From the NCBI GenBank assembly GCA_030390025.1, contig CM059432.1, positions 66,652,001-66,716,000 on the forward strand: a stretch of DNA of 64,000 bases, given 5' to 3'. Made by a program: the position numbers and the translations under genes. The notes below the pieces were generated by a model. That model was not told the DNA's origin, made no database searches, and worked only from the letters and a program-made list of their open reading frames with translations. Positions within the stretch are counted from its first letter, which is position 1; every line of letters starts with the position of its first letter. Below, piece by piece: positions 9,891-53,021 of this stretch. The stretch is from Squalus acanthias (lineage: Eukaryota).

Positions 9891-9915
9891 TGCAGTTCTC
9901 GGAATACATTCTGAG

Positions 9916-9929
9916 CGTCGGTGTCACCA
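9916..9929 (-). promoter_or_regulatory. Primer-binding site, tRNA-Trp type
   Basis: TGGTGACACCGACG directly inside the 5' LTR. Copy 2 has TGGTGACCCCGACG, complementary to the tRNA-Trp 3' end. Confidence 0.85.
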
Positions 9930-9930
9930 A

Positions 9931-10171
9931 TGTTGAGGCTGCCGCGAAACACGAATTAAGGCTGAATCCATGTGTGGAAAACAAGAGACTTTTTTAATAC
10001 AACTGCATGGTACAAACTGGCTGAACAGACTGTTCCCAGAATTCTCTGGAAAGATCCTGAGGGCCCGCCCACTCCTGCCATAAAGGTAAGGTGCCTTAAA
10101 GGGAAGGTGCTCGATATATTGTCCACGGACGGAAAAGTGGATAATGCCCGTTTAGGTGGCGATCCGCCACA
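9931..10171 (-). repeat. 5' LTR of Gypsy copy 1
   Basis: Direct repeat of 5818-6058, adjacent to the PBS. Confidence 0.97.
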
Positions 10172-12908: not shown

Positions 12909-13609
12909 GGGGGCGAAATTGGGTGCCTTTGTGCCTCCCATTAACGGGGCACAAATGGCTTTGCGACTGGGCACGGCGCTGACATCGACTCCCGCCATAT
13001 TCAGCGGGAGTTTTGCGGCAGCGCACCCCGATCTACTTCGCCCGGAGATCGTGACATCATCGCCGTCCGCATCACCCAGGTAGCGCCCCAGACCCGAAAT
13101 TGACTTCCGCTGCCTGCATGTGCGCCGGTCGAAAACACCGACAGCTGCAGGAGGCGTGCATCGGGTGGCCGGCCGCTTCGGAGGTAAGTAAAAAAAATCT
13201 TACCTTTCTTGTTCCAGTTTCTTTCATGTGTTCCTGCCCACGATCGATCAGCCCGGCACTCTGCTTGAGTGCCAGGCTGATCGCGCGGGTTCGTGGCTGC
13301 CTTGGTGGTCTAGGTAGGTACTTTTTTATTGCAGAGCCTGCAGCGATGGCCCTTCCCTTCACGGGAAGGAAGGAGCCTTTGAACGCGGCAGCGCTGCACG
13401 GCCCAGTGTGCAGCTCTGCTGAAGCCTCCGCCCTGCCTGCTGCTGATTGTGCTCCAAGAAGGAAGTGGAGTGCTTGATTTAACGCTCCATTTCCTTCTTG
13501 GAGCGCAAACGGCAAATTTTTCAAAAGTTTAAAATCATTAGCCTGGCGCTAACTTTTCAAACTTTTAAAAATGAGCGCCCCAAACGGGTCGATAGTGAAT
13601 TTCTGTCCC
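12909..13609. mobile_element. Harbinger-type MITE
   Basis: Termini GGGGGCGAAATT / AATTTCTGTCCC with imperfect 3-bp TSD TTT/TTG. GC-rich interior similar to 54593-55208. Confidence 0.7.
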
Positions 13610-14113
13610 TTGATATTAATAAGCGGGTTGTTCATCACAGAGTCCTCAGCTGAGCTAACCTTACTGAAGATTGTCCCCAATATGATTGTTACAACCATTG
13701 GTAATTTTGTTGTATAATAAAACAACATTTGTTTTTTTTAATTCATAAAGAATACACAGGTGTCCTAATGTTCTTTGCAGTTGGTGGTAGGGGCTTTCTT
13801 ACATTTATTTAATATGCACTACACAATTCATATACTAATAACATACTGACCCCTAAAATCCTTTAATACTATCTGGATATGAGGAGTCAGCGCCAATGTT
13901 TTGCTCCATTCAATGTTTGAGGTCCAAGAAAAGCTATTGGTCCCAACTGACATTTTTTCTGAGTCATTATTTTAATGAAGCAATTTTCACAACATGTGAA
14001 ATCTTATAAAATTGCTCTAGTTTGACACAAAGCAGCAAACTCACAAGGCATTTACTTCATGCCCCCAGCTGATTTCTTGTTTTGTTGCCAATTCATTCCG
14101 TTCCTTCCCTGAA

Positions 14114-14315
14114 AGTGAGAAGCCACACAACACCAGGTTATAGTCCAACAGCTTTATTTGAAATCACAAGCTTTCGGAGCGCTGCTCCTTCGTCAGGTGA
14201 AGAAGGTGCAGCGCTCCGAAAGCTTGTGATTTCAAATAAAGCTGTTGGACTATAACCTGGTGTTGTGCGACTTCTCACATTTGTCCACCCCAGTCCAACA
14301 TCTCCACATCATGGC
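14114..14315. mobile_element. Hairpin-shaped Penelope-terminus mini-element with hammerhead motif
   Basis: Inverted arms span 14115-14278, plus a short tail. Flanked by the 12-bp direct repeat TCCTTCCCTGAA (14102-13, 14316-27). Same family as 37929-38151. Confidence 0.8.
14164..14200 (-). ncRNA. Minimal type-I hammerhead ribozyme motif
   Basis: UCAC-CUGACGA-A-GGAGC(AGC)GCUCC-GAAA-GC-UU-GUGA: conserved core, paired stems I and II, palindromic AGCU in place of stem III. Confidence 0.8.
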
Positions 14316-14471
14316 TCCTTCCCTGAAGGCATTGATTTCTTGCTAAGGTACAGTTCCATGGTACCGACAGCTCTCTACTACCTCCTCCAAGTGGCCAGTC
14401 TTTATATCTGAGCTGAAACAGTGAGCTTCAGTGGACTATTTCGCTATGGGGGGAGTCCTCATGGCTCATCT

Positions 14472-19978: not shown

Positions 19979-20619
19979 ATTCTCTTTTTCCACAAAAGCC
20001 TAACCTCAAACTCACCATTTCTTTTAGCAGTACACAATTATTTCCTCAATGAATTATTTTAAATTTGTCATGCTTGAATTAGAAATGAATGTTGGCTATT
20101 CTTGATTAACTTATGTCTTGGTGATTATTAAGTTTATCTTGTATTATAGCCTCTAGTAGCTTACCCACTGTTGATGTTAGAATGACTGGTCTATAGTTAC
20201 CTCATTTATCTCATTCATCCTTTTTGAACAGAGGTCTTACAATTAGCAACACTCAAATCCTCTAGCACAACTTCCATATCCAAGTATGTTTGAAAGACTG
20301 TGGTCAGAATGTTTCCTCTCTGACTTCCTTCAACAGTGTTGGATGCATGGCATAAGGGCCTGGTGACTTACCCACTTTGATCTCTGCTAATATTTTCTAT
20401 AGTTATCACTAATAATGGTTCCTCTTCTATATTCAGATTTCTGCTATCAACACTTGTGGAAATGTTCCTGCTGATTTGAAAATCTACCCTTATTTCTTAA
20501 TTAAATTTAATTGTGGTGATTCATGTTAATCGCCATATAACATTCAGCTTGTAATTGTTAGATCAATCTCTTTGCTTTTTGTGGTTGTGCTTCTATTTGA
20601 ATCTCTGGTCATTCAATAG

Positions 20620-22580: not shown

Positions 22581-23070
22581 TTTCTGAATGGTCTGCTTTG
22601 TGCTGTGTACTTGTGTCACCGTTCTGTGTCAACAGCTGTTTGCTATTCCATTTTGTTTACTACTTTGAATCAACTAATGATTCAATTGACATTAATGCCC
22701 AAGGGTTTGGGAGGGGAAACTTATTTCAGGTATCCATCTCCTGATTGCTACCGAGCGAACCCGACTGGAGATGCATGACTCTCATTCCAGGTAAGGACAA
22801 GTATCATGTTCAGTTGTGATGCCTCACGTAACTGCATTGCCTGCTATACATAGTCAAACTAACACATGACTAATAACCAGTTGTTCAAGCTACCTCAGGG
22901 CACGCAAAGTTCATATGCATCATATGAGTCAATGCCTTCAGGAGATGAGGGGAGGGTGGAAATAAGTGAGCCAAAGTAATACTTGGTGCTTTGATTATAT
23001 CTGCAGCTGCTGTGTAACAAAAATATGATTCCCATTTCTTGTGGAGCTGTGTCATTAATCTTGGAGGAAA

Positions 23071-24792: not shown

Positions 24793-27700
24793 ACATAAGA
24801 ACATAAGAACATAAGAAATAGGAGCAGGAGTAGGCCAATCGGCCCCTCGAGCCTGCTCCGCCATTCAATAAGATCATGGCTGATCTGATCCTAACCGCCA
24901 ATCTACTATCTATCACAGAACCATCTCCTGCATCTAACAGAATTGCACACACGAAATAGGAGCAGAATCAGGCTACACAGTCCCTGGGCCCGCTCCACTA
25001 CCCACAGGGCCATGACCGATCCGAACCTAGACTCATGTCCAAATTCCTGCCCGCTCCCCGTAACCCTTAATGCCCTTTACTTCTAGGAAACTGTCTATTT
25101 CTGTTTTAAATTTAATTAATGTTGTAGCTTCTACAGCTTTTTGTGGCAGCATATTCCATGGACCTACCACCCTCTGAGTGAAGTAGTTCCTCCTCATCTC
25201 AGTTTTGAAAGAGCAGCCCCTTATTCTAAGACTATGTCCCCTAGTTCTCGTCTCACCCGTCATCGGGAACATCCTCCCCGCATCCACCCGATCCAACCCC
25301 TTCACAATCTTATATGTTTCAATAAGATCGCCTCTCATTCTTCTGAACTCCAATGAGTAGAGTCCCAATCTACCCAACCTCTCCTCATATGACCACCCCC
25401 TCATCCCCGGGATTAACCGAGTGAACCTTTTTTGCACTGCCTCGAGAGCAAGGATGTCTTTCCTTAAGTAAGGACACCAAAACTGTATGCAGTATTCCAG
25501 GTGCGGTCTCACCAATACCTTGTACAACTGAAGCAATACCTCCCTATTTTTATATTCTATCCCCCTAGCAATGAAAGCCAACATTCCATTTGCCTTCTTA
25601 ATCACTTGCTGCACCTGCATACTAACCTTTTGAGTTTCGTGCACCAGGACCCCCAGATCCCTTTGCACTTCAGTACTCTCCAGTTTCTTGCCATTAAGAT
25701 AATAAATTGCTCTAGGATTTTTCCTGCCAAAGTGCATCACCTCACACTTTCCAGTGTTGTATTCCATCTGCCAAATCTCTGCCCACTTACTTAGCCTGTC
25801 TATGTCCCCTTGCAGGTTTTTTATGTCCTCCTCACTCACTACTTTCCCTCCCATCTTTGTATCATCTGCAAATTTTGATATGTTACACTTGGTCCCTTCC
25901 TCCAAATCGTTAATATAGATTCTGAAGAGTTGGGGACCCAGCACTGACCCCTGTGGAACACCACTAGTTACTGATTGCCAGTCTGAGAATGAACCATTTA
26001 TCCCAACTCTTTGCTTTCTGTTAGATAGCCAATCCTCTATCCATGCCAGAATATTACCCCCAATCCCGTGATTTTTTACCTTAAGCAATAATCTTTTGTG
26101 TGGCACCTTGTCAAATGCCTTTTGGAAGTCTAAATACACTACGTCCACTGGTTCCCCTTTATCCACTCTATATGTTACTTCCTCAAAGAACTCCAGCAAA
26201 TTTGTCAAACATGACTTCCCCTTCGTAAAACCATGCTGACTTTGTCCTATTAAATTATGATTATCCAAATGTCCTGTTACTGTTTCCTTAATAATGGACT
26301 CCAAAATTTTACCTACCACAGATGTTAGGCTAACCGGTCTATAGTTACCAGCCTTCTGTCTACTGCCCTTTTTAAATAAGGGTGTTACATTAGCAGTTTT
26401 CCAGTCTGCCGGGACCTTAGCGGAATCCAGGGAGTTTTGAAAAATTATTACCAATGCATCTACAATCCCTACCGCCACTTACTTCAAGACTCTAGGATGT
26501 AAGCCATCAGGTCCAGGTGATTTATCCACCTTGAGTCCCATTATTTTACCGAGTACCACTTCCTTAGTGATTTTGATCGTGTTTAGCTCCTCTCCCCCTA
26601 TAGCCCCCTGTTTGTCCAGTGTTGGGATATTCTTCGTGTCCTCTACTGTAAAGACTGATACAAAATATTCATTCAGTGTTTTTGCCATCTCCATATTTCC
26701 CACCATTAATTTCCCGGTCTCATCCTCTAAGGGACCAACATTTACTTTAGCCACCCTTTTTCTTTTTATATAACTATAAAAACTCTTACTATCTGTTTTT
26801 ATATTTTTTGCTAATTTACTTTCATAATCTATCTTCCCTTTCTTAATCAATCTTTTTGTTATTTTTTGCTGCCTTTTAAAGTTTTCCCAATCCTCTGTCC
26901 TCCCACTAGATTTCGCTACCTTATATGCCCTTGTTTTTAGTCGAATACTATCCTTAATTTCTTTACTTAGCCACGGATGACTGTCCTTTCTTTTACACCC
27001 TTTTCTTTTCAGTGGAATATATATTTTTTGGAAGTTGTAAAATAACTCCTTGAATGTACACCACTGATCATGTGTCGTCTTACCCTTTAATCTATTTTCC
27101 CAATCCACTCTACTCAATTCCGCTCGCATACCTTCATAGTCTCCTTTATTCAAGCTTAGCACGCTTGTTTGAGATCCAACCTTCTCACCCTCTAATTGAA
27201 TATGGAATTCAACCATGTTATGGTCACTCATTCCAAGGGGATCCTTTACTAGGACATTTTTAATTAATCCTGTCTCGTTACACAGGACCAGATCTAAGGT
27301 TGCTTGCCCCCTGGTCGGTTCAGTTACATACTGCTCAAGAAACCCATCCCTAATACACTCAATGAACTCATCCTCAAGGCAGCCCTGCCCCATTTGATTT
27401 GTCCAATTAATATGATAGTTAAAATCCCCCATAATTATAGATGTTCCCTTATTACATGCCTCAACTATTTCCTGATTGATACGCCGTCCAATAGAGTTGC
27501 AACTGTTCGGAGGCCTATAGACTACGCCCACTAATGTTTTTTTCCCCTTATTATTCCTTATCTCCACCCAAACTGTTTCATTATCATGATTTTTTGACCC
27601 AATATCATTACTCTGTATTACAGTGATTCCTTCCTTTATTAACATAGCCACCCCACCTCCCCTTCCTTCCTGCCTGTCCTTCCTGATCGTTAAATAACCT

Positions 27701-28225
27701 GGTATGTTTAATTCCCAGGCATTGTCACCCTGCAGCCATGTTTCTGTAATGGCCACAATATCATAACCATATGTAGTTATTTGTGCCATTAACTCGTCTA
27801 TTTTGTTACGAATGCTACGTGCATTCAGATAGAGAACTTTCAAATATGCTTTGTGGCACTTAGTTCCTGCTTTTTCACTTTTTACCAGTTTACCTTTTAC
27901 TCCACACACTCTGTCCCTTCCTGCCACGCTCTGATTTGTGATTCCCCTACTGCTACCTATGTCTATGACCCTCTCTGTTGTCATTTTTATTTTTGCTCTC
28001 TTGAAACCTCCCCCCCACTAATTAGTTTAAAGCCCTCTCCACAGCCCTAGTTATTCGATTCGCCAGGACACTAGTCCCAGCACTGGCCAAGTGAAGTCCG
28101 TCCCAACGGAACAGCTCTCTCCCGCCCCAGTACTGGTGCCAGTGTCCCAAGAAGCAAAACCCATTTTTCCCACACCAGTCTTTGAGCCACGCATTCAACT
28201 CCCTGATTTTATTTACCCTAGCCAA
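24793..28225 (-). mobile_element. CR1-C: same subfamily as CR1-B, truncated within ORF1, inserted antisense in the CR1-B 5' UTR
   Basis: (ACATAAGA)n tail at 24793, complete ORF2, ORF1 C-terminus 28022..28225. Confidence 0.93.
25033..27984 (-). pseudogene. CR1 ORF2p (AP endonuclease plus RT), 983 codons with a single in-frame stop at 26479-26481
   Basis: ORFs 26479..27984 and 25033..26478 are contiguous and in frame. TAA corresponds to GAA in CR1-B (near 32102). FADD active site. Confidence 0.95.
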
Positions 28226-29463: not shown

Positions 29464-30358
29464 GGGGGAGAAATTCAGTATCGCCCCATTTGGGGTGCAA
29501 TTCTCGGCCGGGCGCAAAGATTAGCGCCTGGCGCTAATTATCGCCACCGACTGCAAACTTGACTTTTATCGCCCCTGGAGGTGATTGCAGCGCTATATCA
29601 GGCGCTTCACACCTGTCTTAAGGCGCAAAGGCCGAGGAGCGAGGTGCTACCTCTGAGCGCTGGTGAAGCTCATGTAATGTCAGTCAGCAATGGAACACAC
29701 ACACAATGGCACGGGCCAGTTCTTAAAGGGGATGGTTAATCTTGCTTTCCATCCACATCCTGCTCATTGCAGCCTTGAATCTCGGCCTGGAGAGACTTGC
29801 ACATCAAATGTGCTGGAAAGAACAATGGAGAGTACCAGGCAAAGAGCTCAGAGTGCAGCTCCCACAGTCTCTGCTAAATCGATACAAGGAATGGCAAATC
29901 AAAATGAACCTGCAAAGTGCTGCTCAGTACCCAAAACTACTTCACACAACGTTGAATCTCTCCAGAAGTCTCTCCCTCTCTCTCTCTCAGAATGCGTAGT
30001 TCAAAAATGGCACCAACAATAAAAGGCAGGAAGCGGTCACCTTTAAATAGCGCTCCCCCTTTCCCTTCATGACTGCAGAACGCTCCCCTCAACCTGTCGT
30101 TGCTAGCGTCAGGCGGTAAGGCAGGAGGCGCCACTCAATATCCACTCCGGGGTGATACCGGGGCGTTACGCACTCGAGTGACGTCATGATCTGCCGGCGC
30201 AGGAGATCGTGGCGGTAGTGTTTAGCGCCGCCGCAAAATGTCTAGTTAATTTCGCGAGCGGTGCAAACTTCGCCGCGCCTGGACGCTAGATGCTTTGCGC
30301 CCCATTAGCGCCCTCTTAAGGCGCTAACGGGAGGCGCAACCAACTGAATTTTTCCCCC
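29464..30358. mobile_element. Harbinger-type MITE (895 bp)
   Basis: TIR GGGGGAGAAATTCAG / CTGAATTTTTCCCCC (14/15) with TSD TAA. The empty site is seen in CR1-C (~27860). Confidence 0.95.
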
Positions 30359-30813
30359 TAATTGTCACGAAACATATTTGAAAGTTCTCTATCTGAATGC
30401 ACGTAGCATACGTAACAAAATAGATGAGTTAATGGCACAAATAACTACATATGGGTATGATCTTGTGGCCATTACAGAAACATGGCTGCAGGGTGACAAT
30501 GCCTGGGAATTAAACATACCAGGTTATTTAACGATCAGGAAGGACAGGCAGGAAGGAAGGGGAGGTGGGGTGGCTATGTTAATAAAGGAAGGAATCACTG
30601 GAATATAGAGAAATGATATTGGGTCAAAAGATCAGGATAATGAAACAGTTTGGGTGGAGATAAGGAATAATAAGGGGAAAAAACCACTAGTGGGCGTAGT
30701 CTATAGGCCTCCGAACAGTTGCAACTCTGTTGGACAGAGTATCAATCAGGAAATAGTTGAGGCTTGTAATAAGGGAACATCTATAATTATGGGGGATTTT
30801 AGCTATCATATTA

Positions 30814-31174
30814 CAGGAAACTCTTTATTAACCGGCACCGACGGGACTGGCGTGGTGCCGATTAATCAAAAAGTCCGGATAACGGAGAGTTATATCTCCC
30901 AACGTACGAGAGCCCCGTACACATTTACATGCGCCTGCATTCGGAGCTCCGTCTCCCCGGGGACTGCCAGCTGACCATCTGTCGTGTCCGCTGCCTACCC
31001 AGGCTGCACATTCCCCTCCCAATCTACACGCTCCGATACAAGGCAAACACCTCGGGTTTTTTTTTAAGTTAATTTTAAACGAGAGATGAAGGAAAACCCC
31101 GGTTACCTACTCAAGAATTTTGCCGGTTAAGAGATTTCCGGATATTTGGGTGCCGGTTAATAAAGAGTTTCCTG
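30814..31174. mobile_element. Tc1/mariner (pogo/Tigger-like) MITE, 361 bp
   Basis: Perfect 26-bp TIR CAGGAAACTCTTTATTAACCGGCACC with TA TSD. The empty site is seen in CR1-C (~27408). Confidence 0.95.
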
Positions 31175-34100
31175 TAATTGGACAAAACAAATTGGGCAGG
31201 GCTGCCTTGAGGATGAGTTCATTGAGTGTATTAGGGATGGATTTCTTGAGCAGTATGTAACTGAACCGACCAGGGGGCAAGCAACCTTAGATCTGGTCCT
31301 GTGTAACGAGACAGGATTAATTAAAAATGTCCTAGTAAAGGATCCCCTTGGAATGAGTGACCATAACATGGTTGAATTCCATAGTCAATTAGAGGGTGAG
31401 AAGGTTGGATCTCAAGCAAGCGTGCTAAGCTTGAATAAAGGAGACTATGAAGGTATGCGAGCGAAATTTAGTAGAGTGGATTGGGAAAATAGATTAAAGG
31501 GTAAGACGATACACGATCAGTGGTGTACATTTAAGGAGTTAGTTTACAACTTCCAAAAAAAAATATATTCCACTGAGAAGAAAAGGGTGTAAAAGAAAAG
31601 ACAGTCATCCGTGGCTAAGTAAAGAAATTAAGGATAGTATTCAACTAAAAACAAGGGCTTATAAGGTAGCCAAATCTAGTGGGAGGTTAGAGGATTGGGA
31701 AAACTTTAAAAGACAGCAAAAAATAACAAAGATTGATTAAGAAAGGGAAGATAGATTATGAAAGTAAATTAGCAAAAAATATAAAAACAGATAGTAAGAG
31801 TTTTTATAGTTATATAAAAAGAAAAAGGGTGGCTAAAGTAAATGTTGGTCCCTTAGAGGATGAGACTGGGAAATTAATGGTGGGAAATATGGAGATGGCA
31901 AATACACTGAATGAATATTTTGTATCAGTCTTTACAATAGAGGACACTAAGAATATCCCAACACTGGACAAACAAGGGGCTATAGGGAGGGAGGAGCTAA
32001 ACATGATCAAAATCACTAAGGAAGTGGTACTCGGTAAAATAATGGGACTCAAGGCGGATAAATCACCTGGACCTGATGGCTTACATCCTAGGGTCTTGAG
32101 GGAAGTGGCGGTAGGGATTGTGGATGCATTGGTAATAATTTTCCAAAACTCCCTGGACTCAGCAAAGATCCTGGCAGACTGGAAAACTGCTAATGTAACA
32201 CCCTTATTTAAAAAGGGCAGTAGACAGAAGGCTGGAAACTATAGACCAGTTAGCCTAACATCTGTGGTAGGTAAAATTTTGGAGTCCATTATTAAGGAGA
32301 CAGTAACGGGACATTTGGATAATCATAATTTAATAGGACAAAGTCAGCATGGTTTTATGAAGGGGAAGTCATGTTTGACAAATTTGCTGGAGTTCTTTGA
32401 GGAAGTACATACAGGGTGGATAAAGGGGAACCAGTGGATGTGGTGTATTTAGACTTCCAAAAGGCATTTGACAAGGTGCCACACAAAAGATTATTGCTTA
32501 AGATAAAAAATCACGGGATTGGGGGTAATATTCTGGCATGGGTAGAGGATTGGCTATCTAACAGAAGGCAGAGAGTTGGGATAAATGGTTCATTCTCAGA
32601 CTGGCAATCAGTAACTAGTGGTGTTCCGCAGGGGTCAGTGCTGGGTCCCCAACTCTTTACAATCTATATTAACGATTTGGAGGAGGGGACCGAGTGTAAC
32701 ATATCAAAGTTTGCAGATGATACTAAGATGGGAGGGAAAGTAGTGAGTGAGGAGGACATAAAAAATCTGCAAGGGGACATAGACAGGCTAAGTAAGTGGG
32801 CAGAGATTTGGCAGATGGAATACAATACTGGAAAGTGTGAGGTTATGCACTTTGGCAGGAAAAATAGTAGAGCAAGTTATTATCTTAATGGCAAGAAACT
32901 GGAAAGTACAGAAGTACAAAGGGATCTGGGGTCCTGGTGCACGAAACTCAAAAGGTTAGTATGCAGGTGCAGCAAGTGATTAAGAAGGCCAATGGAATGT
33001 TGGCTTTCATTGCTACGGGGATAGAATATAAAAATAGGGAGGCTTTGCTTCAGTTGTACAAGGTATTGGTGAGACCGCACCTGGAATACTGCATACAGTT
33101 TTGGTGTCCATGCTTAAGAAAAGACATACTTGCTCTCGAGTCAGTACAAAGAAGTCCTCGGTTAATCCCGGGATGAGAGGATGGACATATGAGGAGAGGT
33201 TGGGTAGATTGGGACTCTACTCATTGGAGTTCAGAAGAATGAGAGGCGATCTTATTGAAACATATAAGATTGTGAAGGGGTTGGATCGGGTGGATGCGGG
33301 GAGGATGTTCCCGATGATGGGTGAAACTAGAACTAGGGGGCATAGTCTTAGAATAAGGGGCTGCTCTTTCAAAACTGAGATGAGAAGGAACTACTTCACT
33401 CAGAGGGTGGTAGGTCCATGGAATATGCTGCCCCAAAAAGCTGTAGAAGCTACATCATTACATAAATTTAAAACAGAAATAGACAGTTTCCTAGAAGTAA
33501 AGGGAATTAAGGGTTACGGGGAGCAGGCAGGAATTTGGACATGAGTCTAGGTACGGATTGGTCATGGCCCTGTGGGTAGCGCAGTGGGCCTCGGGGCCGT
33601 GCAGCCTGATCCTGCTCCTATTTCGTGTGTCCAATTCTGTTAGGTTCAGGAGATGGTTCTGTGATAGTAGATTGGCGGTTAGGATCAGATCAGCCATGAT
33701 CTTATTGAATGGCGGAGCAGGCTCGAGGGGCCAATTGGCCTACTCCTGCTCCTATTTCTAATGTTCTTATATACTGGCATGGATTGAAAATTGGTTAACA
33801 GACAGGAAACAGAGAGTAGGAATAAATGGGTCTTTTTCGGGGTGGCAGGCAGTGACTAGTGGAGTACCGCAGGGATCAGTGCTTGGGGCCCCAGCTATTC
33901 ACAATATATATCAATGATTTGGATGAGGGAACCAAATGTAATATTTCCAAGTTTGCTGACGACATGAAATGAGGTGGGATTGTGAGTTGTGAGGAGGATG
34001 CAAAGAGGCTTCAAGGCGACTTAGACAAGTTGAGTGAGTGGGAAAATACATGGCAGATGCAGTATAACGTGGATAAATGTGAAGTTATCCACTTCGGTCA

Positions 34101-36589
34101 GAAAAACAGAAAGGTAGAGTATTATTTAAATGGTGATAGATTGGGAAATGTTGATGTAAAAGGGACCTGGGTGTCCTTGTACACCAGTCACTGAAAGCAA
34201 ACATGCAGGTGCAGCAAGCAGTTGGGAAGGCAAATGGTATGTTGGCCTTCATTGCAAGAGGATTTGTGTACAGGAGCAAGGATGTCTTACTACAGTTATA
34301 TAGGACCTTGGTGAGACCACAACTGGAGTTTTGGTCTCCTTACCTAAGAAAGGATATACTTGCCATAGAGGGAGTGCTGCGAAGGTTCACCAGATGATTC
34401 CTGGGATGGCAGGACTGTCGTATGAGGAGAGATTGGGTCGACTAGGCCTGTATTCACTAGAGTTTAGAAGAATGAGAGGGGATCTCATTGAAATGTATAA
34501 AATTCTGACAGGGCTAGACAGACTGGATGCAGGGAGGATGTTTTCCCTGGCTGGGGGGTCTAGAACGAGGGGTCACAGTCTCAGGATACAGGGTAGGACA
34601 TTTAGGACTGAGATGAGGAGAAATTTCTTCACTCAGAGGGTGGTGAACCTGTGGAATTCTCTACCACAGAAGGTTGTGGAGGCCAAGTCACTGAATATAT
34701 TTAAGAAGGAGATAGATAGATTTCTAGACACAAAGGCATCAAGGGGTATTGGGGAGAGAGCGGGAATATGGTATTGAGATAGAGGATCAGCCATGATCAT
34801 ATTGAATGGCGAGCAGGCTCAAAGGGCTGAATGGCCTACTCCTGCTCCTATTTTTCTATGTTTTTTCTATGTTTCTATCAACTGCACCACTAGCCTGCTC
34901 AATCCACCACACCACTATCATTCACCTATCAACAATCTCTATCAATCAGGACTCATAGCTAAAATTCATAGCTTCACCTCACCCTCACACACTTAGTACT
35001 GCTGCAAGCCTCACACCCACATCAAACAGCTCGCACCACTGCCAGCTATTCAACCGTGACAGCCACATCACCCAAACATATTGCACCACACTCACTGACA
35101 CACTTCCCTCTCTCTTGCCAGACAAGGTGGTGCACAACTGGAGGCAGCAGGACCTAACCGGCAGGGGACAGGCACGCCTGCATGTCCTTATGTCCATGCA
35201 GGAGACGGTGCTTGCCACCATTAGAATGGCCATTGCTGAGGCCGTGGCCAGCAACATGGCTGAATCCATAGAAGATGACGTAATTCTCATACCTAATCCT
35301 CCTTCTCACATCCCACTCCCCCCTCATCCCATAATATCTTCTGATTTACAAGCTGCAGATGGTGTAAGCATGCACCTCTTGCTTTCCCCCCTCCCATCAC
35401 CACAACCTTACCCTTGTGCCACTGTCCTTTCAGATACCCAAGAGCTTCAACCTGGCCAGGCAGTGGTGGAATAGCAACAGGTGGAAGAGCAACAAGACAG
35501 TGATGATGAAGAAACACTGTCACTCGATTTCACACTTGCCCAGCTCAGATACTAACGCTGCGCATAATTTAGAGGCGGGATCTGCATGTGGTGCGACACC
35601 GGACATGAGTGGCCTGCAGCCAGGGCAGGGGGAACGATAGCGCAGGTGCCAACTCGCCAGAGGGTGAGGTCGCACACAAGTTCTGCTGCAGAGGGCTCAG
35701 ATGAGCATGTCGATGAGGCCGATGGATAAGCACAATGAAATGCTTGGTGCATTGGGAATCCTGCCAGAAAGCCTAAGTGTAATGTCAAGGAGCATGGAGG
35801 AGTCCAGTACCAACTTGGCACAGGGCTTTACGCAGAGCTTGGAGCCCATCCTTTCCAGCAAAGCAAGGAAGTGGTGGCTAACACCATTTGCACACTTGCG
35901 GAGCCAACCATGATACAGCTTCTAATGGCCGATGTTTCCGCTTCCATTGCAGCACAAGCAGCAGCCACCCAACATCTGAGTGATGCAGTGGAAGCTCAGA
36001 CTGCTGCCATCATGGCTGTGGATTCCAGTGTTGAAAGGGCCTGCAGGGTGTCATGGCAGTCCAGCAATCTATCCTCCAACAGATTACTTGGATTGCTGAG
36101 GCACCGCCCCGGGGGAGTGGCAGTGGCTCAATGGAGCACAAACCTGCTGTCCTCTCTCAGGATGATTGCATTCGTCCTGCCACTCCGCCAGTGCCCTTGC
36201 TTTCCCAGGCCGAGATGGAGCAGTCCACAGCCGGGCCTTCTAGGCCCAGAGCTGCTCGAAGTTCTCCTCCAAGGCCATCTGCAGTCTCCCTGCTGAAAGT
36301 CAGTAGTCTTTCACCAACCATGCTGCAGCCACTGGAGTAGCACTGTGTATGAGCACTAGGACAGACAAAGGCACATGGACGACAGGTACTAAGGGAATGC
36401 ACAAGGGTGATTAGTTTACGTTTGTATGAAATATGACATGATTTAATTCATAAATTTGGTTTGGAATGTTTAATTTATGTTGGTTTTTATTTTTGCATTG
36501 TGGCCAATTGGACGCTGCGATGGTCAGTGACAGAGGGAAGGTAAGGCATGGGACTATTGGTGAATGGGAATTGGGGTTGTGTTTACGGG

Positions 36590-37735
36590 TATCGCGCTCA
36601 GCCTGAGTTCTTCACGACAGCCAGGCCAGAAAGGTGCCTCCTCCATTCTCGTCCTCCTCTTCCTCCTGCTCCTGCTCTTGCTCCTCCTCCTGTTCCTCAA
36701 TTGGTCGCCATATAGCTGGTGGCAAGGGCTGTGCCCTCATGATAGTGAGGTTGTGCAGCATGCAGCAGACCACCATGAACCTTGACAGCTGCACTGCTGC
36801 GTACTGCAGGGCTCCTCCAGAGCGGTCCATGTAGATGAAGCATTGTTTCAGCATGCCAGTGGTCTGCTCTATCACATTTTGTGTAGCAGCATAGCTTTCA
36901 TTGTACACATGCTGCCCATGTGTGCATGGGTTGTGCACCGGAGTCATGAGCCACGTCGTCAGCAGATAGCCTTTGTTGCCCAGTAGCCACTCTTTGTTTG
37001 GCATCGTGGCTCAGGTACAGATGGCACATCAAATTGCCGCAGAATGAATGAATCATGACTGCTGCTAGGATACTGAGCTTTTCACCTGCATGATTTGCTG
37101 CCTATGGTCACACACCAGCTGGACGTTGAGCGAGTGGCATCCCTTTCGGTTGCTGTACATCTCAGAGTTTACATGCAGTGCCCGTAAAGCGACATGCGTG
37201 CAGTCAATGGTGCCCTGCACAATGGAGAAGCCTGCAATTCTTGCGAAGCCATGTGCTCACTCCGCCTGCTGCTCTCTGGCAAAAGAGAATGAAATGTAGA
37301 TAACTCTCTGAATACAGAGCCTCCGTGATCTCCCTTATGCAACAGTGGATGGCAAACTGCGAGATATTGCAAATAACTCCAGCTCCATTTTGGAAGGAGC
37401 CCGACACACAAAAGTTCATGGCCACGGTCACCTTCACAACCACTGGCAATGTGGTCCCTGCCCTGCTCTGAGGTTGCAGTTGTGGCTGCAGCAGGTGGCA
37501 GATTTCATTGAAGACGTCCTTACTGAAGCACAGACATCTGACACACTGTTCCTTGCTGAGGTTCAGTTGGGAGAATTACTCCCTTAACACCTGAGACAAT
37601 ATGGCCTCCTGCTGAGAGCCCTTATCCCCCTCCTTCTCTTCCCTCTTCCAGGAGCTTGTCGTTCTCTGCATGCCTTCTGCTCATTCTCCAAGTCATGCTG
37701 TATTCCAAGGGGAATTCCTACTATTACACCCAAGC
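36590..37735 (-). pseudogene. Harbinger (HARBI1-like, DDE_Tnp_4) transposase, frameshifted
   Basis: SGSFQ..ISQFAIHCCIREITEAL, QGTIDCTHV, NRKG.HSLNVQLVCD, SHDSFIL, WLLGNKGY, VIEQTTGMLKQCF, CCMLHN, acidic tail. Confidence 0.92.
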
Positions 37736-38022
37736 CTGTCAGGAAGTGGTTTGTGCAGAAACCTTGAAGTCAGGAAAAAGTCCTTCAGCACCTGCCATAC
37801 CACTCCCTGTAGACTTTAGCAACTTTAAACAACTATAAAAAGCACCAAACACTTGTAGAATCATATCCACAGCCAGTAGAAATCAATCAGTAACTAATCT
37901 ACAAGTAGGTGATGATCCCTTTAAATAGTGGTCATGATGCGGAGATGCCGGTGTTGGACTGGGGTGGACAAAAATGAGAAGTCGCACAACACCAGGTTAT
38001 AGTCCAACAGATTTATTTAAAA

Positions 38023-38060
38023 TTACAAGCTTTCGGAGCTGTTGCCCCTTCGTCAGGTAA
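38023..38060 (-). ncRNA. Minimal type-I hammerhead ribozyme motif
   Basis: UUAC-CUGACGA-A-GGGGC(AACA)GCUCC-GAAA-GC-UU-GUAA. Confidence 0.78.
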
Positions 38061-38070
38061 AGTTGTAACT

Positions 38071-38108
38071 TTACCTGATGAAGGGGCAACAGCTCCGAAA
38101 GCTTGTAA
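38071..38108 (+). ncRNA. Minimal type-I hammerhead ribozyme motif
   Basis: UUAC-CUGAUGA-A-GGGGC(AACA)GCUCC-GAAA-GC-UU-GUAA. Confidence 0.78.
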
Positions 38109-39375
38109 TTTTAAATAAATCTGTTGGACTATAACCTGGTGTTGTGCGACTTCCCTTTAAATAGCATTAGTGGGGAGTCCTTCCTGCTGCTGAATGTGTG
38201 TTCAGCTGTGCAAGCTTAAGAGAGGGCGTTAGCTGAAACTTTGAGCTCCAAAATGGCAGCGCTGACATCAAATCAGCTTTGCACACTGATTGACGTTATG
38301 ATCTGCCTACTCTGCATATTTCCAGCGAACGCTCACTGCACTAACACCCTCACCAATGTGGCTTCCGGTGCGACTCTCACCAGAAGTGTGCACGTGCGCT
38401 GTGGATGCCATTTTGGACCACTAAGGGCACCCATACTGCCAAAAAAACTACGGATCCGAATTTTGTGCCCAATGTTTCAGATGTACTTCCTCTTTAAAAC
38501 CAAAAAAAAATAGCGGATAGGCATATTGAAGCAACCAGGAAATGTGAAGGGGGCAATATTTATAAAAACACAGACAAACCCATGAGGGATCATGAGTGGA
38601 ATGATGTACCACAGTCAAGTAGTGGAGAGAAATATTAAGATATTAAAGAGATAAAGGTGCCAATTTTAACTAACCAAAATCATAGTTAACAGGGTGGTAA
38701 TGACCTCAAAATGGGGTTGGTAGACTTGCCACCCCATTAACCCAGCCACCATTTGTAATGGGGCCTTCCAATAGCCAGTCGGAGTCCATTTACTTTGCAC
38801 ATCAGCTCCTGTGAATTTAGTTAGAACCCTGATTGTAATTTTAAGGTACACATGGGCGGAAAGTGGGCCCCATATGGCCTGTCCATGTATTCCGGCATTC
38901 AGTGGCCTAACCAGATCTTCCCACTTAAAGGCAACTTTTTTGGCTGCTGCAAAAATGGCCCCCAAACTTTTGCCAAGTTATATTTCTGTGGAGCCAGGTT
39001 AATCAGGTGTGCTCATCCTGGCCCAATAAAAATTCTGTGGGGTGCTGCCAACCTGGGCTTTCTCCCCTTCGCTTTGCCTCACTGTCCCAAGACCTACCTG
39101 CGGTCCGCCATGGCGTCTGAGCTGCCCGATATTTTGATGGCGTAAAGCCAACCAGCTGCAGTGGAAAGTCCCTTCAGTTTCCCAGGCTGCTGGCAGGAAC
39201 AGGAGGCCGGCCAGCACTCTTTGCCAGTTGACCACCCAAAAGTTACAATCTGCCCCAAAAGGTGTGTAAATAACCAAGGAAGTGGGAGGGTCCGGTGAAC
39301 AGCATTAGAAAGGAGAGATGGAAAACCTGAGGGGGGTCAGAGATGGAATTAAAACAGGTTTGAAAATGAGGACAC

Positions 39376-40131: not shown

Positions 40132-42190
40132 ATAGCTACTAAAGTCTGAAGTTACTGAAGTCAATGGGTCAGAGGGTTGCAGGGTGCCGAGGAGAAATAC
40201 GAGATATTCTAACAATATCTTTGAACACTTCCCACAGCTGAACCTCCAGGGCTTCATCACTGGAGACCCAATTTTTACCCATGTTTCTTCCATTTATTGT
40301 TGCATGGAATGAAACTAAATGCTGGTCTGATGTAAATAAAAAATCTCCCCTTCAAGAACAAGCATTCACATTTTAAATTCAGATGGTGTAACTGTCAGTT
40401 TACAGGTCTGACTCATGCACAGGGAGCCTAGGTAAATGAAGGGCAGACCTTACATTGCAAGACGCTCCACTACTTGCACAGATATGCCTGCACCACAGAT
40501 GTGTGTAGCCGTACTTTTTATAGAATCACAAAATCAGGATTATTCTCTGAATTAAATCCAATCAATCAGTTTGTCAGCAAAGTCCAGCTTCCACATCTGT
40601 GTAATGTCTCTCAGACAACTTACATAGCAGATTTAGAGGCACAGGCCCAAGGTGTTCCTTCTGTTTACCACCTGTTTTGTGGCAAACTCAGGGCAGACTG
40701 TGGAAGGAAAAGACTGGGAGGCCTGGTGCCAAATTCCCTCCCAGTCAAAAACCCAATTAAAATTTTCCTCCACCCGAGATGGGATTATGGCACAACATCC
40801 GCCATAATCCCATGCACCATACACAAATGGATTTAAATAAGTTACTGGTTTCAATCGTTGAATTTTTCTCCACTACCGACTGTGATACATCTCAAAAAAT
40901 CATTGACTGTATGAAAGCGGCATTAGGTGGAAATACTGTTATAGGCCACTTTGTTAGGATGGTGTACTTGGTCAAAGTTTGCTGTTAATGAGTGGGTTTT
41001 TTTGGGGCTTTTTTTTTATCTCCAGTTTTCTAAAAGCTTCAGCAGTGCTGCTGGTGCTGGAAAGAGTTTTTTGAACCTTCAGGCACAGGACGCAATGGTT
41101 CTTCCATTAAGAAGTTCCTTGTACCTGTGGTATGAAGAGGACAAAAAGAAAGGTGAAGAAGGGCAGCAAAATAAGGAGGCAGCCATAGCCTTGATTCATC
41201 AAGAGGTTACCCAGGAGAACCCTTGCCGGCTGGCCAGACATCACAAGACACATCTTCACCTAACAAAATCCATGCCCACTGCCAAATCTGTCTTGCCATC
41301 ATGGACCCTCTTTGGCAGCTTTATCAAGTCATTAATTTTGTAAATGCATAGCACATCTCCACAACTGCAAGGCTCCCATATTGAAAACATTGTGCTCTTC
41401 CTTTTTGCAAGCATCCCCCCACTGTAATGTTTTGACCATTTTTCCATAGATTGAACTTGGTAAAAAGAGCTAATTTAAATATTGTGTTTTCAAACATGGT
41501 TTATTCATGCAGGTTAAAACAACGAAGAGCTGAGGCAATAGTTAAGATGCTAATGAGCTAGCATTGATTTTTGTTTTGTCATAGACAGTAGACAATTAAT
41601 TCATTAATGAGTCAAAACTAATCAGTAAACATCTTGTGCCCACTGTACTGGGGAGTTGCTAGTCTCACGAATCATTGAGGCCCAGAAAAAGGCAGTGAGA
41701 TGGATACAATGCAAAGTGAGTTAGATAATTGACAAATGAAGTTCAACACCAATAAATGTGAGGTATTACATTTTGGCACGAAGAATAGGGAGGTTACTTA
41801 TCACTTGGAGCATGCGAGTCTAGGTGGGGTAGAGGAACAAAGGGATCTCGGAGTACAAATACACAAATCACTGAAAGTTGCGCCACAGGTTAGCAAGGCC
41901 ATAAAAAAAGCAAACCAAGCACTAGGGTTTATTTCTAGAGGGATAGAATTGAAAAGTAGGGAAGTTATGCTAAACCTGTATCAAACCTTGGTTAGACCAC
42001 ACTTAGAGTATTGCGTGCAGTTCTGGTCATTATATTATAAAAAGGATATAGAGGCACTGGAGAGGGTGCAGAGAAGATTTACAAGGATGATATCAGAAAT
42101 GCGAGGGTATACCTATCAGGAAAGGATGAACAGGCTGGGTCTCTTTTCTCTTAAAAAAAGAAGGCTGTGGGGTGACCTAATAGAGGTCTT

Positions 42191-42414
42191 TGTGGCGGAT
42201 CGCCACCTAAAACAGGCATAATCCACTCTTCCGTCTGTGGACAAATTTCCAGCCCCTTCCCTTTAAGGCAGAAGGGGGTGGGGCCTCAGGTTTTACCCAG
42301 AGAATTCTGGGAGCAGCTTTCTCAGACATTTTGTTTTGCCATGCAGTGAATAAAAGCTTCTTGTTTTCCACATATGGATTCAGCCTCCATTCGTGTTTCG
42401 CGGCAGCCTCAACA
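42191..42414 (+). repeat. 5' LTR of Gypsy copy 2 (224 bp)
   Basis: TGT...ACA ends; direct repeat of 46285-46530. Confidence 0.96.
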
Positions 42415-42454
42415 TTGGTGACCCCGACGCTCAGAATGTATTCCGAGCACTGCA

Positions 42455-45400
42455 ATGGTGGACACGAACGCAGTTTCCGTGAAACTGCCGGAGTTTTGGG
42501 AAAACCAGCTCGAAGCCTGGTTTCTCCAAGCTGAATCTCGCTTCCGGCTGCGAAATATCACCACAGATGGGACGAAGTACGACTATCTCGTCACATCACT
42601 CAGTAGCGTCGCAGTTTCCAAGGTTTGGACAACGCTGCAGAACCCACCAGAGGAAGGCAAGTACGCACATCTCAGAACAGCGCTCCTTAAAAAATTTACG
42701 GCCTCGGCATAGCAGCGAAACTGCCACCTCCTCGACCTTCCAGGCCTCGGTGATGCCTCACCGTCAGACCTCCTCTCCCACATGCTCTCCCTCACCGACG
42801 AGAGCCCACCCGGATCCCTCTTCCGCACGCTGTTCATCCGCCAGCTCCCTCTCAGCATCCGCCCAGCGATCGTGGCGTCCGGCTTCACGAACCTGGAAGC
42901 CCTGGCCGATGAGGCCGACAAGCTGCTGTCCGCTCACTCCAGCCGCGACGTCACTCCGGACCTGGCAGCCAATGCCTGGGCGCGCCCCTCACCATCCAGC
43001 CCGCGGCCACAAGGGCCTGTCACCAGGCCCACGGGGCCTTCACGCCCCACTAACCCGGGCCACTGTTACTACCACGCACGGTTCGGCGCCAGGGCACAAC
43101 GGTGCACACCTCCTTGCTCTTTCAAGTCCGCCCCCGTTCCAGCCCCTGCGATGGCCGTGGCCCACGCGGGCTCCCTGCTGTTCGTCACGGATGACAAAAC
43201 CGGCCGCCGGTTCCTGTGCGACACTGGGGCTCAGCACAGCATCATCCCGGCCTCCTCCCTCAACATCCAAAAGGGCGAACGAGGACCGGCGCTGGCTGCT
43301 GCTAACGGCTCGGAAATCCGGACGTATGGCACCCGGACAGTCACCCTCGACCTCGCTGGTCACCGCTACCGATGGAGTTCATCACTGCCAAGGTGCTCTC
43401 CCCCCTCATCGGCGCAGATTTCCTGTGTGCCCACGGCTTACTGGTAGACATCCCTCGTCACCGCCTCGTGGACATGAACACCATGTCCCCCATCCTGGGA
43501 GCCATGGCCCCCCGTCAACCCGCCGACATGGCGTCACAGTGCCACGCCCGGGCCACGGATGACTACTCGGCACTCCTGGCCGCATTACCGGCCCTTACCA
43601 ATCCGACCTTCTCCGCGGAGGCCGCCAAACACGGGGTGGAACACTTCATCCCCACCACAGGCCCCCCAGTGTACGCCCACGCCCGCAGGCTGGACCCGGC
43701 CAAACTGGAGATCGCGCGGACCGAGTTTGCCACCATGGAACAGCTCGGCATCATCCGCCTCTCCAACAGTCCCTGGGCCTCCCCACTCCAAATCGCCCCC
43801 AAACCAGGCGGGGGTTGGCGCCCCTGCGGGGATTACCGCCGCCTCAGTGACGCCACCACCCCTGATCGGTACCCCGTGCCGCACATTCAGGACTTCTCGG
43901 CTAGACTGGCCGGCCGCTCAGTCTTTTCCAAGGTCGACCTGGTGCGCGGCTACCACCAAGTCTCCGTCCAGCCCGCGGACGTCCCCAAGACGGCCGTAAT
44001 CACCCCCTTCGGCCTGTTCAAGTTCCTGCGGATGCCCTTCGGCCTCAAAAACGCGGCACAGGCATTCCAACGGCTCATGGACTCGGTCCTTTGGGACCTG
44101 AAGTTCCTGTTCGTCTACCTGGACGACATCCTGGTAGCCAGTTCCTCCAAGCAGGAACACCTCGAACACCTTCGCATCCTGTTCGGGCGCCTCAGCGACC
44201 ACGGGCTCATTCTCAGCCCAACCAAATGCCAGTTCGGCCTGGACAAGATCGACTTCCTCGGCCACCACATCACCCATGCTGGGGCCATTCCCCTGCCCAC
44301 CAAGGTGCAGGCTATCCAACAATTTCCCCGCCCCACCACCATCAAAGGCCTCCAGGAGTTCCTCGGGACGGTGAATTTCTATAACCGCTTCATCCCCAAA
44401 GCGGCGTCCCTCATCAGCCCCCTGTATGAAGCCCTCCGGGGCAGGAGCGGCAAGATGGCGGTCGAATGGACGGCAGATACGTCCGCCGCCTTCGATTCCA
44501 CCAAGACCGCGCTTGCCAACGCCACCCTGCTCGTGCACCCACGGCCCAAGGCCAGGGTAGCGCTCACCACGGACGCCTCCGACCATGCGGTCGGCGCCGT
44601 GTATGAGCAGTGGGTCGACGGCGCCTGGCAACCACTTTCCTCCTTCAGCCGCCAACTACGCCCCCCGGAGGTCAAGTACAGCACCTTCGACCGCGAGCTC
44701 CTTGCGCTGTTCCTGGCGGTCCGCCATTTCCGGTTTTTGCTTGAGGGCCACCCCTTCACTGCGTTTGTCGACCACAAGCCCCTGACATTCGCAATGGCAA
44801 AGTCAACCGACCCCTGGTCCGCCAGGCAGCAGCACCAGCTCGCGGCAGTGTCCGAGTTCACCACGGACATCCAACACGTCTCCGGCCGAGACAATGTGGT
44901 AGCCGACTGCCTCTCCCGCTCTGCCATCCACGCCGCACACCTAGCAGTCGACTACGCTCAACTTGCAGCAGACCAGATCACCGACCCGGATCTGCTCTCC
45001 GCACCCACCAACCTACCAGGGCTACGCCTGGCTGACGTCGCCTGTGGCCCGACCGCAGTCACGGTCAAGTGCGACATATCCCTATGTCAACCTCGGCCCG
45101 TCGTCCCAGCGTCCTGGAGCCGCCGGATATTCGACATTCTCCACAACCTCTCCCACCCCGGTGCCCGCGCTTCCATTAAATTGGTAGCCAACCGCTTTGT
45201 CTGGCGCGGCCTTCGCAAGGATGTGCGTACTTGGGCCAACTCCTGCCTATCCTGCCAACGTGCCAAGGTACAGCAACACACGAAAGCACCCCTCGGAGTT
45301 TACCGTCCCCTCGCGGAGATTCGACCACATCCACGTGGACATCGTCGGGCCCCTGCCGCCGTCGCAAGGACACACGCACTTGCTGACCATCGTTGACCGT

Positions 45401-46264
45401 ACCACATGCTGGCCTGAGGCAATACCACTGACCTCTACCACCACCGCCGACATCGCCAGAGCCTTCGTCAGCACCTGGGTCGCACGGTTCGGCGTCCCCT
45501 CCGACATGACGTCGGACAGAGGTCCGCAATTTACCTCTGAACTCTGGACCGCCGTCGCACGCAATGTCGGGGTGACCATCCACCACACCACAGCGTACCA
45601 CCCCCAAGCCAACGGACTGTGTGAGCGGTTCCACAGATCCTTGAAGGCATCTCTTCGAGCCAGCCTCCAAGATGGCGCCTGGACTGACCGACTTCCGTGG
45701 GTCCTCCTTGGCCTGCGCACCGCGGTTAAAGAAGACCTCCATGCATCGGCAGCAGAGCTCGTGTACGGTCAGCCGCTGCGCGTACCCGGCAAGTTCCTGC
45801 CCACCGCCACGACACCCTGGTCAGCCAACCAGCAACGCCACAACTTCGCCTCACCGGCGTTGCAGTTCGCCCCGGTGCCCATTGCCCGACACGGCGAATC
45901 CACCTCACACGTCCCACTAAGCCTGCACCAGGCACGGTTTGTTTTCGTCCGGCACGACGCCCACAGCGGACCCCTTCAACCCCCGTACGACGGGCCCTAC
46001 AAGGTGCTACAGGCTGGGGACAAATTTTTCTCCCTGCAAGTGGGCGACAGGACCGAAAAAGTGTCGGTGGACCGACTCAAGCCAGCACACTCGGAGCCCG
46101 GGGAGCAGGTCCCTGTAGCTCGTCCACCTCCATGCGGCCGACCTGCCCTCAAGCCGGTTCACCCGGCTGCTCCACGCCCGGCCGTCCCACGTCCACCGGC
46201 GTCCTACAAGAGCCGCTCCGGCCGGCCCATCAGACCGCCGCACCGTCTTGTCCACACCTCCTAA
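42455..46264 (+). pseudogene. gag-pol: gag-pol polyprotein with one nonsense codon (42710) and two frameshifts (~43374, ~45295)
   Basis: ORFs at 42455, 42782 (FLCDTGA protease), 43372 (RT, RNase H) and 45197 (integrase). Confidence 0.95.
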
Positions 46265-46284
46265 GCGGATTCTGAGGGGAGCTG

Positions 46285-46530
46285 TGTGGCGGATTGCCAC
46301 CTAAAACGGGCATAATCCACTCTTCCGTCTGTGGACAAATTTCCAGCCCCTTCCCTTTAAGGCAGAAGGGGGCGGGGCCTCAGGTTTTACCCAGAGAATT
46401 CTGGGAGTTTACCCAGAGAATTCTGGGAGCAGCTTTCTCAGACATTTTGTTTTGCCATGCAGTGAATAAAAGCAGCTTGTTTTCCACATATGGATTCAGC
46501 CTCCATTCATGTTTCGCGGCAGCCTCAACA
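46285..46530 (+). repeat. 3' LTR of Gypsy copy 2 (246 bp, includes a 22-bp tandem duplication)
   Basis: TTTACCCAGAGAATTCTGGGAG occurs twice at 46386-46429. Confidence 0.96.
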
Positions 46531-51205: not shown

Positions 51206-53021
51206 GTTAAAGGCTGTGGTGACTTTGACAGCCATTGGCAAAGCATATCTCTTGGTCCAGCAGGCAGCAGGTCCTATGGCAGGAGGTTGCAGAGATCTGA
51301 GACAGCCTGCCTGGAGAAGGGCAGCCTCCTGCAGCACTGCTCTTCAGATAGGTCCAAGAAACTGACTCTTGGGGGGTGATTTTGCCAATGGGGAGCTTTT
51401 GGAGGCGGGACTCCCACTTGTCAGGTTTCAGTCCCACCTCCTTCAACTTCTGGCTAACCCACGCTATTTTCCCTTGATTGACCTTGTTAAGCCCGCCCAG
51501 TAGGCTTAGCAGGCCAATTAAGGGAAAGCCAGCTGCAGAGAACGTCAATGTATGACGTTTCATCTGTCAAAAATTTTTGACAGATGAATTGTCATCGTTT
51601 GACAGCTCTGTGAAGCTGTCAAACACTGACATTCTCTGTAGTTTGATGAGGTCTTGAATTCAAGACCTCATCAAACCTCGTTCTTTTGCAGAAATCAGAT
51701 GCTTGTTACATTGGAGAATGCAACGGCCATCTGTCATCTCTACCGCGGAGGTGTGAGACTCTCCGCATACCCACCAATTGAAGCCTGCAGGAAGAAACAA
51801 AGGTAAGTACACTTTTTCTAACACTTTCCACTTACCTCAGATACTCACCTCTCCACACTTGCACCCATCACTCACCTCCACAGCACACTTTTGGACCCCT
51901 CCGACCCCCGCAGACCCACTACTCGCCTCGGTGACCCTGGCGGGGTTCGGAGCCTTCACAAAGCTCGCACTTGTGTGGGCAAAATGGTGATAAGCCTATT
52001 TTCTACATGTTAACTACCTGTTAACAGGCAGTTAAGTGGCTGTAATCCCTGCCCGCCTCCAAGGAGACGGGACCTGGTGTGGGATGGCACCCGCCCCCAA
52101 ATTCTGCCATTTTCCCGGCAGTCCCGCCTCCATACCCGCCTCCCCAGGGCTGGCAAGATCGCACCCACGGTCTGTACATCATATATGCTGGGTTTGGCCT
52201 CCTATGAACAGTCCCCTCACCTGCTGTTTTTTGATAGTCGCAGCTGCTGCTGGCACTGGTTTTGGAGGCTGCTGCTGCTGCACTTCTTCCTCCAAGTCTT
52301 CATCTATCCAGAAGAATGTAGCAATAATTGGACCCATTATAAACACAGAAAGCTTACTGAGGGCAATAATGCCAAATTATTGCTAAAGAGGCAATCTGGG
52401 AACTGGAAACTCTCCTGGAAAACCAGACAATGAAAAGATCCTGTGATCCGCTGAGCTTCAGCTGAGTGCCCAGATATATATTATATATAGATAGGCCTAA
52501 AAATTACAGTCGGCATAGCTACGGAGTACTCCGCCGACCTCCGAAAAGAATACAAACTTAGCTTGTGCGAGCCCCACACATAGGGCTGGATTTTGAATGA
52601 CCCATGGAGTCGGGTTTGGAGGCGTGTGGGGGGTTAAATTTGCGGGGTCGGGGTTTCCGACCCCATCCCGCCTCCACGCAATTTTGACGAAATCAGTCGC
52701 GGGGTTCCCGACTCCGTCCCGCCTCCAAGAGGCGGGAGAGGCCATTAAAGCCCTTAACAAGCTCAAAATTGGCTCTGTAATGCCATTTTGAAACGTTTTA
52801 GCTAGTTTAACCCTTTTCTGACGTGAAGTACGCCTGGTGTGAAACACTCCAGTGAAACCTGGCGGGAGCACAAGTGGACAGCTGACTATCAGCTGCAGGT
52901 CCACTATTACAACGGAGATGTGATGAAGGTAGTAGTAGTATTAGAAAGTCGCCGCTGCTGCATTGAATGTGTTCAGAGACTGCCTGGCCTTTGCTGCGAG
53001 AGGACTTGGATGCAAAAAAAA

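Follow-up and report, generated by a model that had tools for sequence, protein, structure and literature searches.

Why should a stretch of shark DNA contain a palindrome of 223 bases (37929-38151) that is flanked by direct repeats and that carries hammerhead ribozyme motifs on both of its strands? That is, is such a hairpin a mobile unit in its own right, or is it instead what remains of some larger element? Coordinates throughout are positions within the window, i.e., the whole stretch of 64,000 nucleotides that was analysed, with position 1 its first letter. The answer preferred here, with a probability of roughly 0.68, is that this palindrome (the 'main element') is a now-dead copy of a very abundant Penelope-like retroelement (PLE), cut short from its 5' side so that only the 3' end (pLTR) with its hammerhead was inserted, and with a mirror arm that was likely made via self-primed fold-back during insertion. 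The features of the locus are the following:

36615..37010, minus strand: DDE transposase fragment (PF13359), E 2.1e-13; context, outside of the element
37916..37928, no strand: left target-site duplication, 13 bp, from repeat comparison along with empty-site loose ends after 37928
37929..37977, minus strand: tail, a 3' extension of one arm only; 49 bp, or 51 bp without the 2-nt duplication overlap in the arms
37978..38065, minus strand (element sense on the minus strand): tail-bearing arm, from arm comparison
38012..38017, minus strand: mirror copy of AATAAA, as read in the sequence
38023..38060, minus strand: minimal type I hammerhead motif, core CUGACGA at 38056, from the motif scan; predicted cut after 38027
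38062..38069, no strand: fold-back centre, a 2-nt unpaired core flanked by short complementary bases
38066..38153, plus strand: tail-less inverted arm, its last 2 nt common to the right duplication
38071..38108, plus strand: minimal type I hammerhead motif, core CUGAUGA at 38075, from the motif scan; predicted cut after 38104
38114..38119, plus strand: AATAAA, from the sequence
38152..38164, no strand: right target-site duplication, 13 bp, from repeat comparison

The arms of the main element, at 88 bp each, pair at 86 of 88 positions, with the two mismatches being G/T at the centre and, at 38079, a C>T change of the CpG type. Folded as RNA the element reaches -159.6 kcal/mol (z -27.9), as low as none of 200 shuffles, and it contains no ORF. 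The 13-bp direct repeat is above chance, as words of at least 12 nt were common to none of 20,000 random flank pairs. The first 2 nt of that repeat extend the palindrome, such that the insertion contains 86 bp of the right arm along with a tail of 49-51 bp. A first-pass annotation of this DNA had described a near-perfect palindrome with arms of about 88 bp, a minimal hammerhead plus AATAAA on each arm, a 13-bp flanking repeat, and a one-sided tail of about 45 bp. All of these are indeed present, with only the length of the tail having been put too low. The main element, that is, is real as well as well preserved, and the original observation is confirmed.

Both hammerhead motifs have a stem I of 4 bp, a stem II of 5 bp, and a palindromic AGCU. 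They fit the minimal type I definition for PLEs, i.e., CUGANGA/GAAA/UH, a helix I of 4-5 bp, an extra base after position 9, G10.1-C11.1, and a palindromic 15.2-16.2, with these criteria taken from the description found in part of Cervera and De la Peña 2014 (PMC4209133). Shared with the metazoan PLE hammerheads described there are a 4-bp helix I, the extra base, G10.1-C11.1, the palindromic 15.2-16.2, and the lack of a helix III. Helix II, however, is 5 bp here versus 7-8 bp in Schistosoma motifs. Minimal hammerhead pairs on opposite strands are described from metazoan PLEs in that same source as well, at distances of about 100-700 bp, whereas the two cores of the main element are about 20 bp apart; a shark family is not mentioned in the available portions of that paper.

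A stem-checked scan of the window yields four minimal hammerhead motifs (38075 on the plus strand; 38056, 14196, and 20746 on the minus strand) versus none in each of 100 shuffles. Stem I is UUAC/GUAA in the main element, UCAC/GUGA at 14196, and AGUU/AACU at 20746, with the palindrome being AGCU or ACGU. The stems thus covary between families, suggesting that hammerhead structure has been kept while sequence has changed, as judged from three independent sequences only. No Rfam hammerhead model matches the main element, with 11 matches up to E 1 of which all score below gathering scores.

Predicted folds place the stem I plus stem II structure of each single motif 0.8 kcal/mol above the minimum, and the catalytic dimer 5-10 kcal/mol above the dimer minimum. 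Folds of monomers 56-66 nt long do not stand out from shuffles in stability (z -1.18 to 0.91), and therefore folding energy supplies no evidence for a ribozyme. As the two hammerheads are on opposite strands, a single transcript carries only one of them, and the antisense arm comes ahead of it whichever strand of the whole element is considered. The cis dimer that minimal hammerheads need consequently cannot form from the main element alone. The computed cost of freeing the hammerhead in full-length RNA is 69.0, 65.4, or 47.9 kcal/mol. With the antisense arm coming first, the predicted ribozymes would be masked in read-through RNA, and the hammerhead motifs are best read as passengers. Minimal hammerheads generally are weak in vitro, dimers included (PMC4209133), the hammerhead of PAc, a Poseidon element of Anolis carolinensis, requires protein (Frangieh et al. 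2024, PMC11167929), and one of nine Xenopus retrozyme dimers cut (Li et al., bioRxiv 10.64898/2026.07.22.740005), as reported in those parts of these sources that are available. Read-through RNA of the stub would be a long double-stranded hairpin, which is a possible source of small RNAs as well as of false microRNA calls.

Abundance was assessed in four of 22 listed related public sequencing runs, which were compared over 37600-38066 only, i.e., over the left flank, the tail, and one arm. No RNA run was among those listed, which has no bearing on expression. Matches consisted of 12,323 contigs in run X5, 1,473 contigs in X6, and, for the two raw-read runs, 13 reads in X21 and none in X22. Across most of the element the summed depth in X5 reaches 1.1-8.7 million, versus 4,853-140,410 in the flank; summed contig depth does not equal copy number and is used here solely as 'very abundant'. 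Among the loose ends listed, those at 37933/37934 (55 and 68 contigs) have an agreement of 0.36-0.38, with additional ends found at 37965/37975 (27 and 54 contigs). Such low agreement indicates many different flanks, as is expected given many insertions with two 3' end positions. Beyond 37928, furthermore, 35 contigs run on, and of the first 24 bases of their consensus 20 agree with the right flank (by eye; median loose length 13). These contigs, as paralogous empty sites with a single copy of the repeat, support the duplication.

No reverse transcriptase (RT) gene of the main-element family, i.e., no donor gene, was found in the 64-kb window, and membership among the PLEs rests therefore on layout plus motif. 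What is seen is what characterizes EN+ PLE insertions: an inverted, truncated pLTR found head to head with a palindrome at the junction, a hammerhead in the pLTR near the 3' end, and a short target duplication of variable length (13 and 12 bp, the latter from a second copy considered below). Also seen are two 3' end positions and the one-sided tail that is optional in PLEs (37 bp in the second copy; 49-51 bp in the main element, which is above the printed range). The complex EN+ insertions described in parts of Arkhipova et al. 2013 (PMC3846280) and Craig et al. 2021 (PMC8557442) have in common with these the head-to-head inverted 3' end, junction palindrome, one-sided tail, and short duplication. 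They differ in that the main element lacks any ORF remnant, the whole insertion being the inverted pair, and in that tails are 37-51 bp and duplications 12-13 bp here versus 30-40 bp and 8-10 bp in print. The architecture of this insertion thus is already published, and the main element most likely is a well-preserved example of a known pattern.

Literature searches listed no paper on a shark PLE hairpin by title and no paper combining 'Penelope', 'non-autonomous', and 'palindromic structure', and the available portion of a Repbase review contains no hairpin statement; repeat databases and supplements may already name the family. Pattern scans for relatives of the main element gave no loci in viral contigs, three in metagenomes, and two in prokaryote genomes, with all five matching only 19-23 bases and treated as chance.

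PAc, in the portion of its description available (PMC11167929), shares with this family two 3' end positions that bound the tail, a hammerhead located upstream, and the copying of uncleaved RNA. The PAc ORF starts at stem II, whereas no such start is seen in the main element. By eye, the arm-tail boundary at 37950-37985 (minus strand) and at 14275-14312 (plus strand) resembles a splice acceptor (branch-like CTCAY, a pyrimidine run, and CAG). The tail ends near CATCATG, also by eye, such that what is seen may be the end of a 5'-UTR intron along with the start of a parental ORF.

Non-LTR retrozymes, as described in parts of Cervera and De la Peña 2020 (PMC7229834) and of Li et al. (bioRxiv 10.64898/2026.07.22.740005), likewise are short, non-coding, possess type I hammerheads, are pLTR-related, and presumably are mobilised by PLEs. 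Retrozymes, however, are head-to-tail tandems that release monomer circles, while the main element is head to head with hammerheads on opposite strands. As a candidate, the non-LTR retrozyme was rejected given a single head-to-head pair, and no tandem array, at either locus.

The window contains as well a second PLE-like family. At about 20600-22600 on the minus strand, the minimal hammerhead at 20746 is found downstream of broken frames which, based on motifs, I take to be RT-like. Neither of these two frames matched a Pfam family, and a GIY-YIG match is weak (E 0.0061, under the Pfam cut-off). This locus may be a broken, 5'-truncated PLE of the second family. More 3'-end pieces of this family are present at 23071, 50736, 60304, 60941, 61789, and 63460. 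An old head-to-head stub of the same family, at 4594-4733, is about 85% alike to its reference and has a longer tail-less arm, an unpaired centre of about 37 nt, and no clear duplication.

The first-pass annotation also held that the same hairpin-plus-tail design recurs independently elsewhere in the window, at 14114-14315:

14102..14113, no strand: left 12-bp duplication, from repeat comparison
14114..14315, plus strand, opposite in orientation to the main element: second, independent insertion of the same family, from layout and sequence
14164..14200, minus strand: the only complete hammerhead motif of this copy, from the motif scan; predicted cut after 14168
14279..14315, on the side of the tail-bearing arm: 37-bp tail
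14316..14327, no strand: right 12-bp duplication, from repeat comparison

As to layout, family, and independence that claim holds, with the two copies 80-81% identical over the aligned element, but the hairpins themselves are not the same. The second copy, that is, has a different centre, at 14196/14197, and only its tail-less arm bears a complete hammerhead, with the tail-bearing arm lacking the CUGAC part of the core. Its arms pair at 77 of 82 positions. Fold-back centres and arm identities, which the annotation had pointed to as informative, can be compared for these two copies: the centres are not the same, and identity is higher between the two arms of one copy (86/88, 78/83) than between arms of different copies (0.85-0.91), which is the outcome that the annotation had set down as favouring independent truncation products over a propagating unit. 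Over the 77 columns common to the four arms, five differences group by copy, none group by arm type, and four are singletons. With all five diagnostic columns grouping by copy, and with the centres differing, the two hairpins should not have descended from one hairpin, unless there has been gene conversion or there are separate hairpin subfamilies.

The best reading instead is that every insertion makes its own hairpin. Going by what is known of PLEs, the target would be nicked by the RT-GIY-YIG protein, reverse transcription would start at one of two neighbouring sites, thereby defining the tail, and the RNA that is copied would be uncleaved. As the junctions suggest, synthesis would stop within about 15 nt of the core, with the antisense, tail-less strand then turning on a micro-hairpin possessing a 2-nt loop and copying itself. 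Nuclease trimming, renewed priming at the opposite nick, or use of the second RT start site are candidate sources of the one-sided tail on the second arm. In the available portions of the PLE literature, self-priming on an antisense template has been inferred from head-to-head palindromes (Arkhipova et al. 2013, PMC3846280), nuclease resolution is considered a possible source of tails (PMC8557442), and for the Anolis element two RT start sites define the tail, both strands are extended, and uncleaved RNA is used (PMC11167929).

The predicted cut site lies within all four arms, and three of these include the whole hammerhead core, which implies an uncut template, as seen in vitro with PAc (PMC11167929, in part). 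At the junction of the main element, the tail-less strand can turn on a 2-nt loop with two terminal pairs, while at that of the second copy the last 5 nt of the tail-less strand pair at four positions across a 2-nt loop. In both cases self-copying from the micro-hairpin yields the next bases that are observed. The unpaired bases at 38062..38069 match the upstream sequence of the family when read on the tail-less arm, and two X6 contigs extending past 38064 match the centre as so read, the polarity call for the main element thus consisting of 2 nt from two contigs of that run. In the second copy, too, the tail-less arm runs on naturally into the centre, as one X6 loose end indicates. The tail-less arm, moreover, reaches further upstream in all three head-to-head stubs of the window, for which chance is 1 in 8. 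The simplest version of fold-back, in which the tail-bearing strand stops early, was rejected as the unpaired centre belongs to the tail-less arm, and simple fold-back alone does not account for the tail. Extreme PLE truncation with fold-back priming, one of the two origins that the first-pass annotation had offered, nonetheless is what layout, differing centres, diagnostic columns grouping by copy, and junctions all support. Should it be a fixed rule that the turn is primed by the tail-less strand, on a micro-hairpin next to the hammerhead, this would pin down the second-strand step of PLE insertion.

The same stub could have been produced in another manner, with the two arms being independent cDNAs, one from each target nick and each RT start site, whose 3' ends were joined by microhomology. 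This resembles twin priming as it occurs in L1 inversions, and is judged to be unlikely, if still the most serious of the alternatives. It accounts directly for both the one-sided tail and the duplication, junction overlaps of 1-2 nt are present, and the Anolis protein is described as extending both strands, from two start sites, and as a predicted dimer (PMC11167929, in part). Independent stops do not require, however, that both junctions should be symmetric with a 2-nt centre, the tail-less arm is the longer one in three of three stubs, and a literature search for Penelope with twin priming returned no PLE paper by title. Following the junction analysis this explanation was demoted. A genome with very many short, young stubs permits statistics on their junctions, and these can tell fold-back and twin priming apart as the way in which PLEs come by their inverted ends and one-sided tails.

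The other origin put forward in the first-pass annotation, in which a PLE acting in trans would retrotranspose a non-coding hairpin as one unit from a transcript of its full length, is improbable. PLE proteins are able to mobilise sequences other than their own in trans (PMC3846280, in part), retrozymes are non-autonomous PLE derivatives (bioRxiv 10.64898/2026.07.22.740005, in part), and the two copies are similar in size and stop near the same place. Those copies nevertheless differ in their centres, one of them is without one core, none of the five diagnostic columns group by arm type, and the ribozyme would be masked in the full RNA, leaving this claim unsupported so far as two copies can tell. 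Among the loose ends listed, those near the centre are scattered (38038, 38059, 38060, 38063, and 38064, the last in two X6 contigs), and summed depth at 38064-38066 falls to 332 (X5) and 237 (X6), from 511,328 and 20,140 in the preceding bin, though this is at the edge of the compared stretch and contigs also break at palindromes. Scattered ends plus low central depth argue, if weakly, against a dominant master hairpin. Among the joints listed for 37600-38066 in the four runs none changes strand, and three backward joints are listed without kind. Similarly improbable is a subfamily of non-coding hairpins that propagate themselves by means of the PLE enzyme, the antisense arm of each locking the hammerhead and keeping the RNA intact for copying.

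Least probable are a DNA-transposon MITE, a microRNA precursor, or later local rearrangement or assembly artefact. A DDE transposase fragment is nearby, but the inverted repeats are not flush with both ends, given the one-sided tail, duplications differ in length (13 and 12 bp) and in sequence rather than being of fixed length, and hammerhead stems covary, so the MITE was rejected. Rfam microRNA models do match the hairpin (the best being mir-1597, E 6e-6), but at 45.4 bits versus a gathering score of 93, and this candidate too was rejected. Against rearrangement or artefact, the layout is common to two independent loci, and one X6 contig spans the left junction (37808-37949) with 0 differences over 142 bases, X6 possibly being the window's own source.

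The PLE stub, as the main element is preferentially viewed here, is about 900 bp from the PF13359 fragment, and its flank is itself repetitive in X5 and X6. A decayed DNA transposon at 35000-38400, presumably Harbinger-like, likely hosts the insertion; this transposon is multi-copy in runs X5 and X6. The window generally is repeat-rich, with LINE as well as LTR-retrotransposon frames. Two copies of an LTR retrotransposon, 94-97% identical and in opposite orientation, are found at 5818-10171 and 42188-46407 and have long RT-integrase frames, while LINE copies that are 94-97% identical form an inverted pair, about 2.5 kb apart, at 24900-27900 and 30350-33670. Short palindromes or hairpins without a hammerhead motif are seen at 55050-55111, 51641-51676, 61228-61267, and 13441-13515, and a 34-bp tandem repeat at 4332-4459 consists of 3.8 copies with 96% matches.
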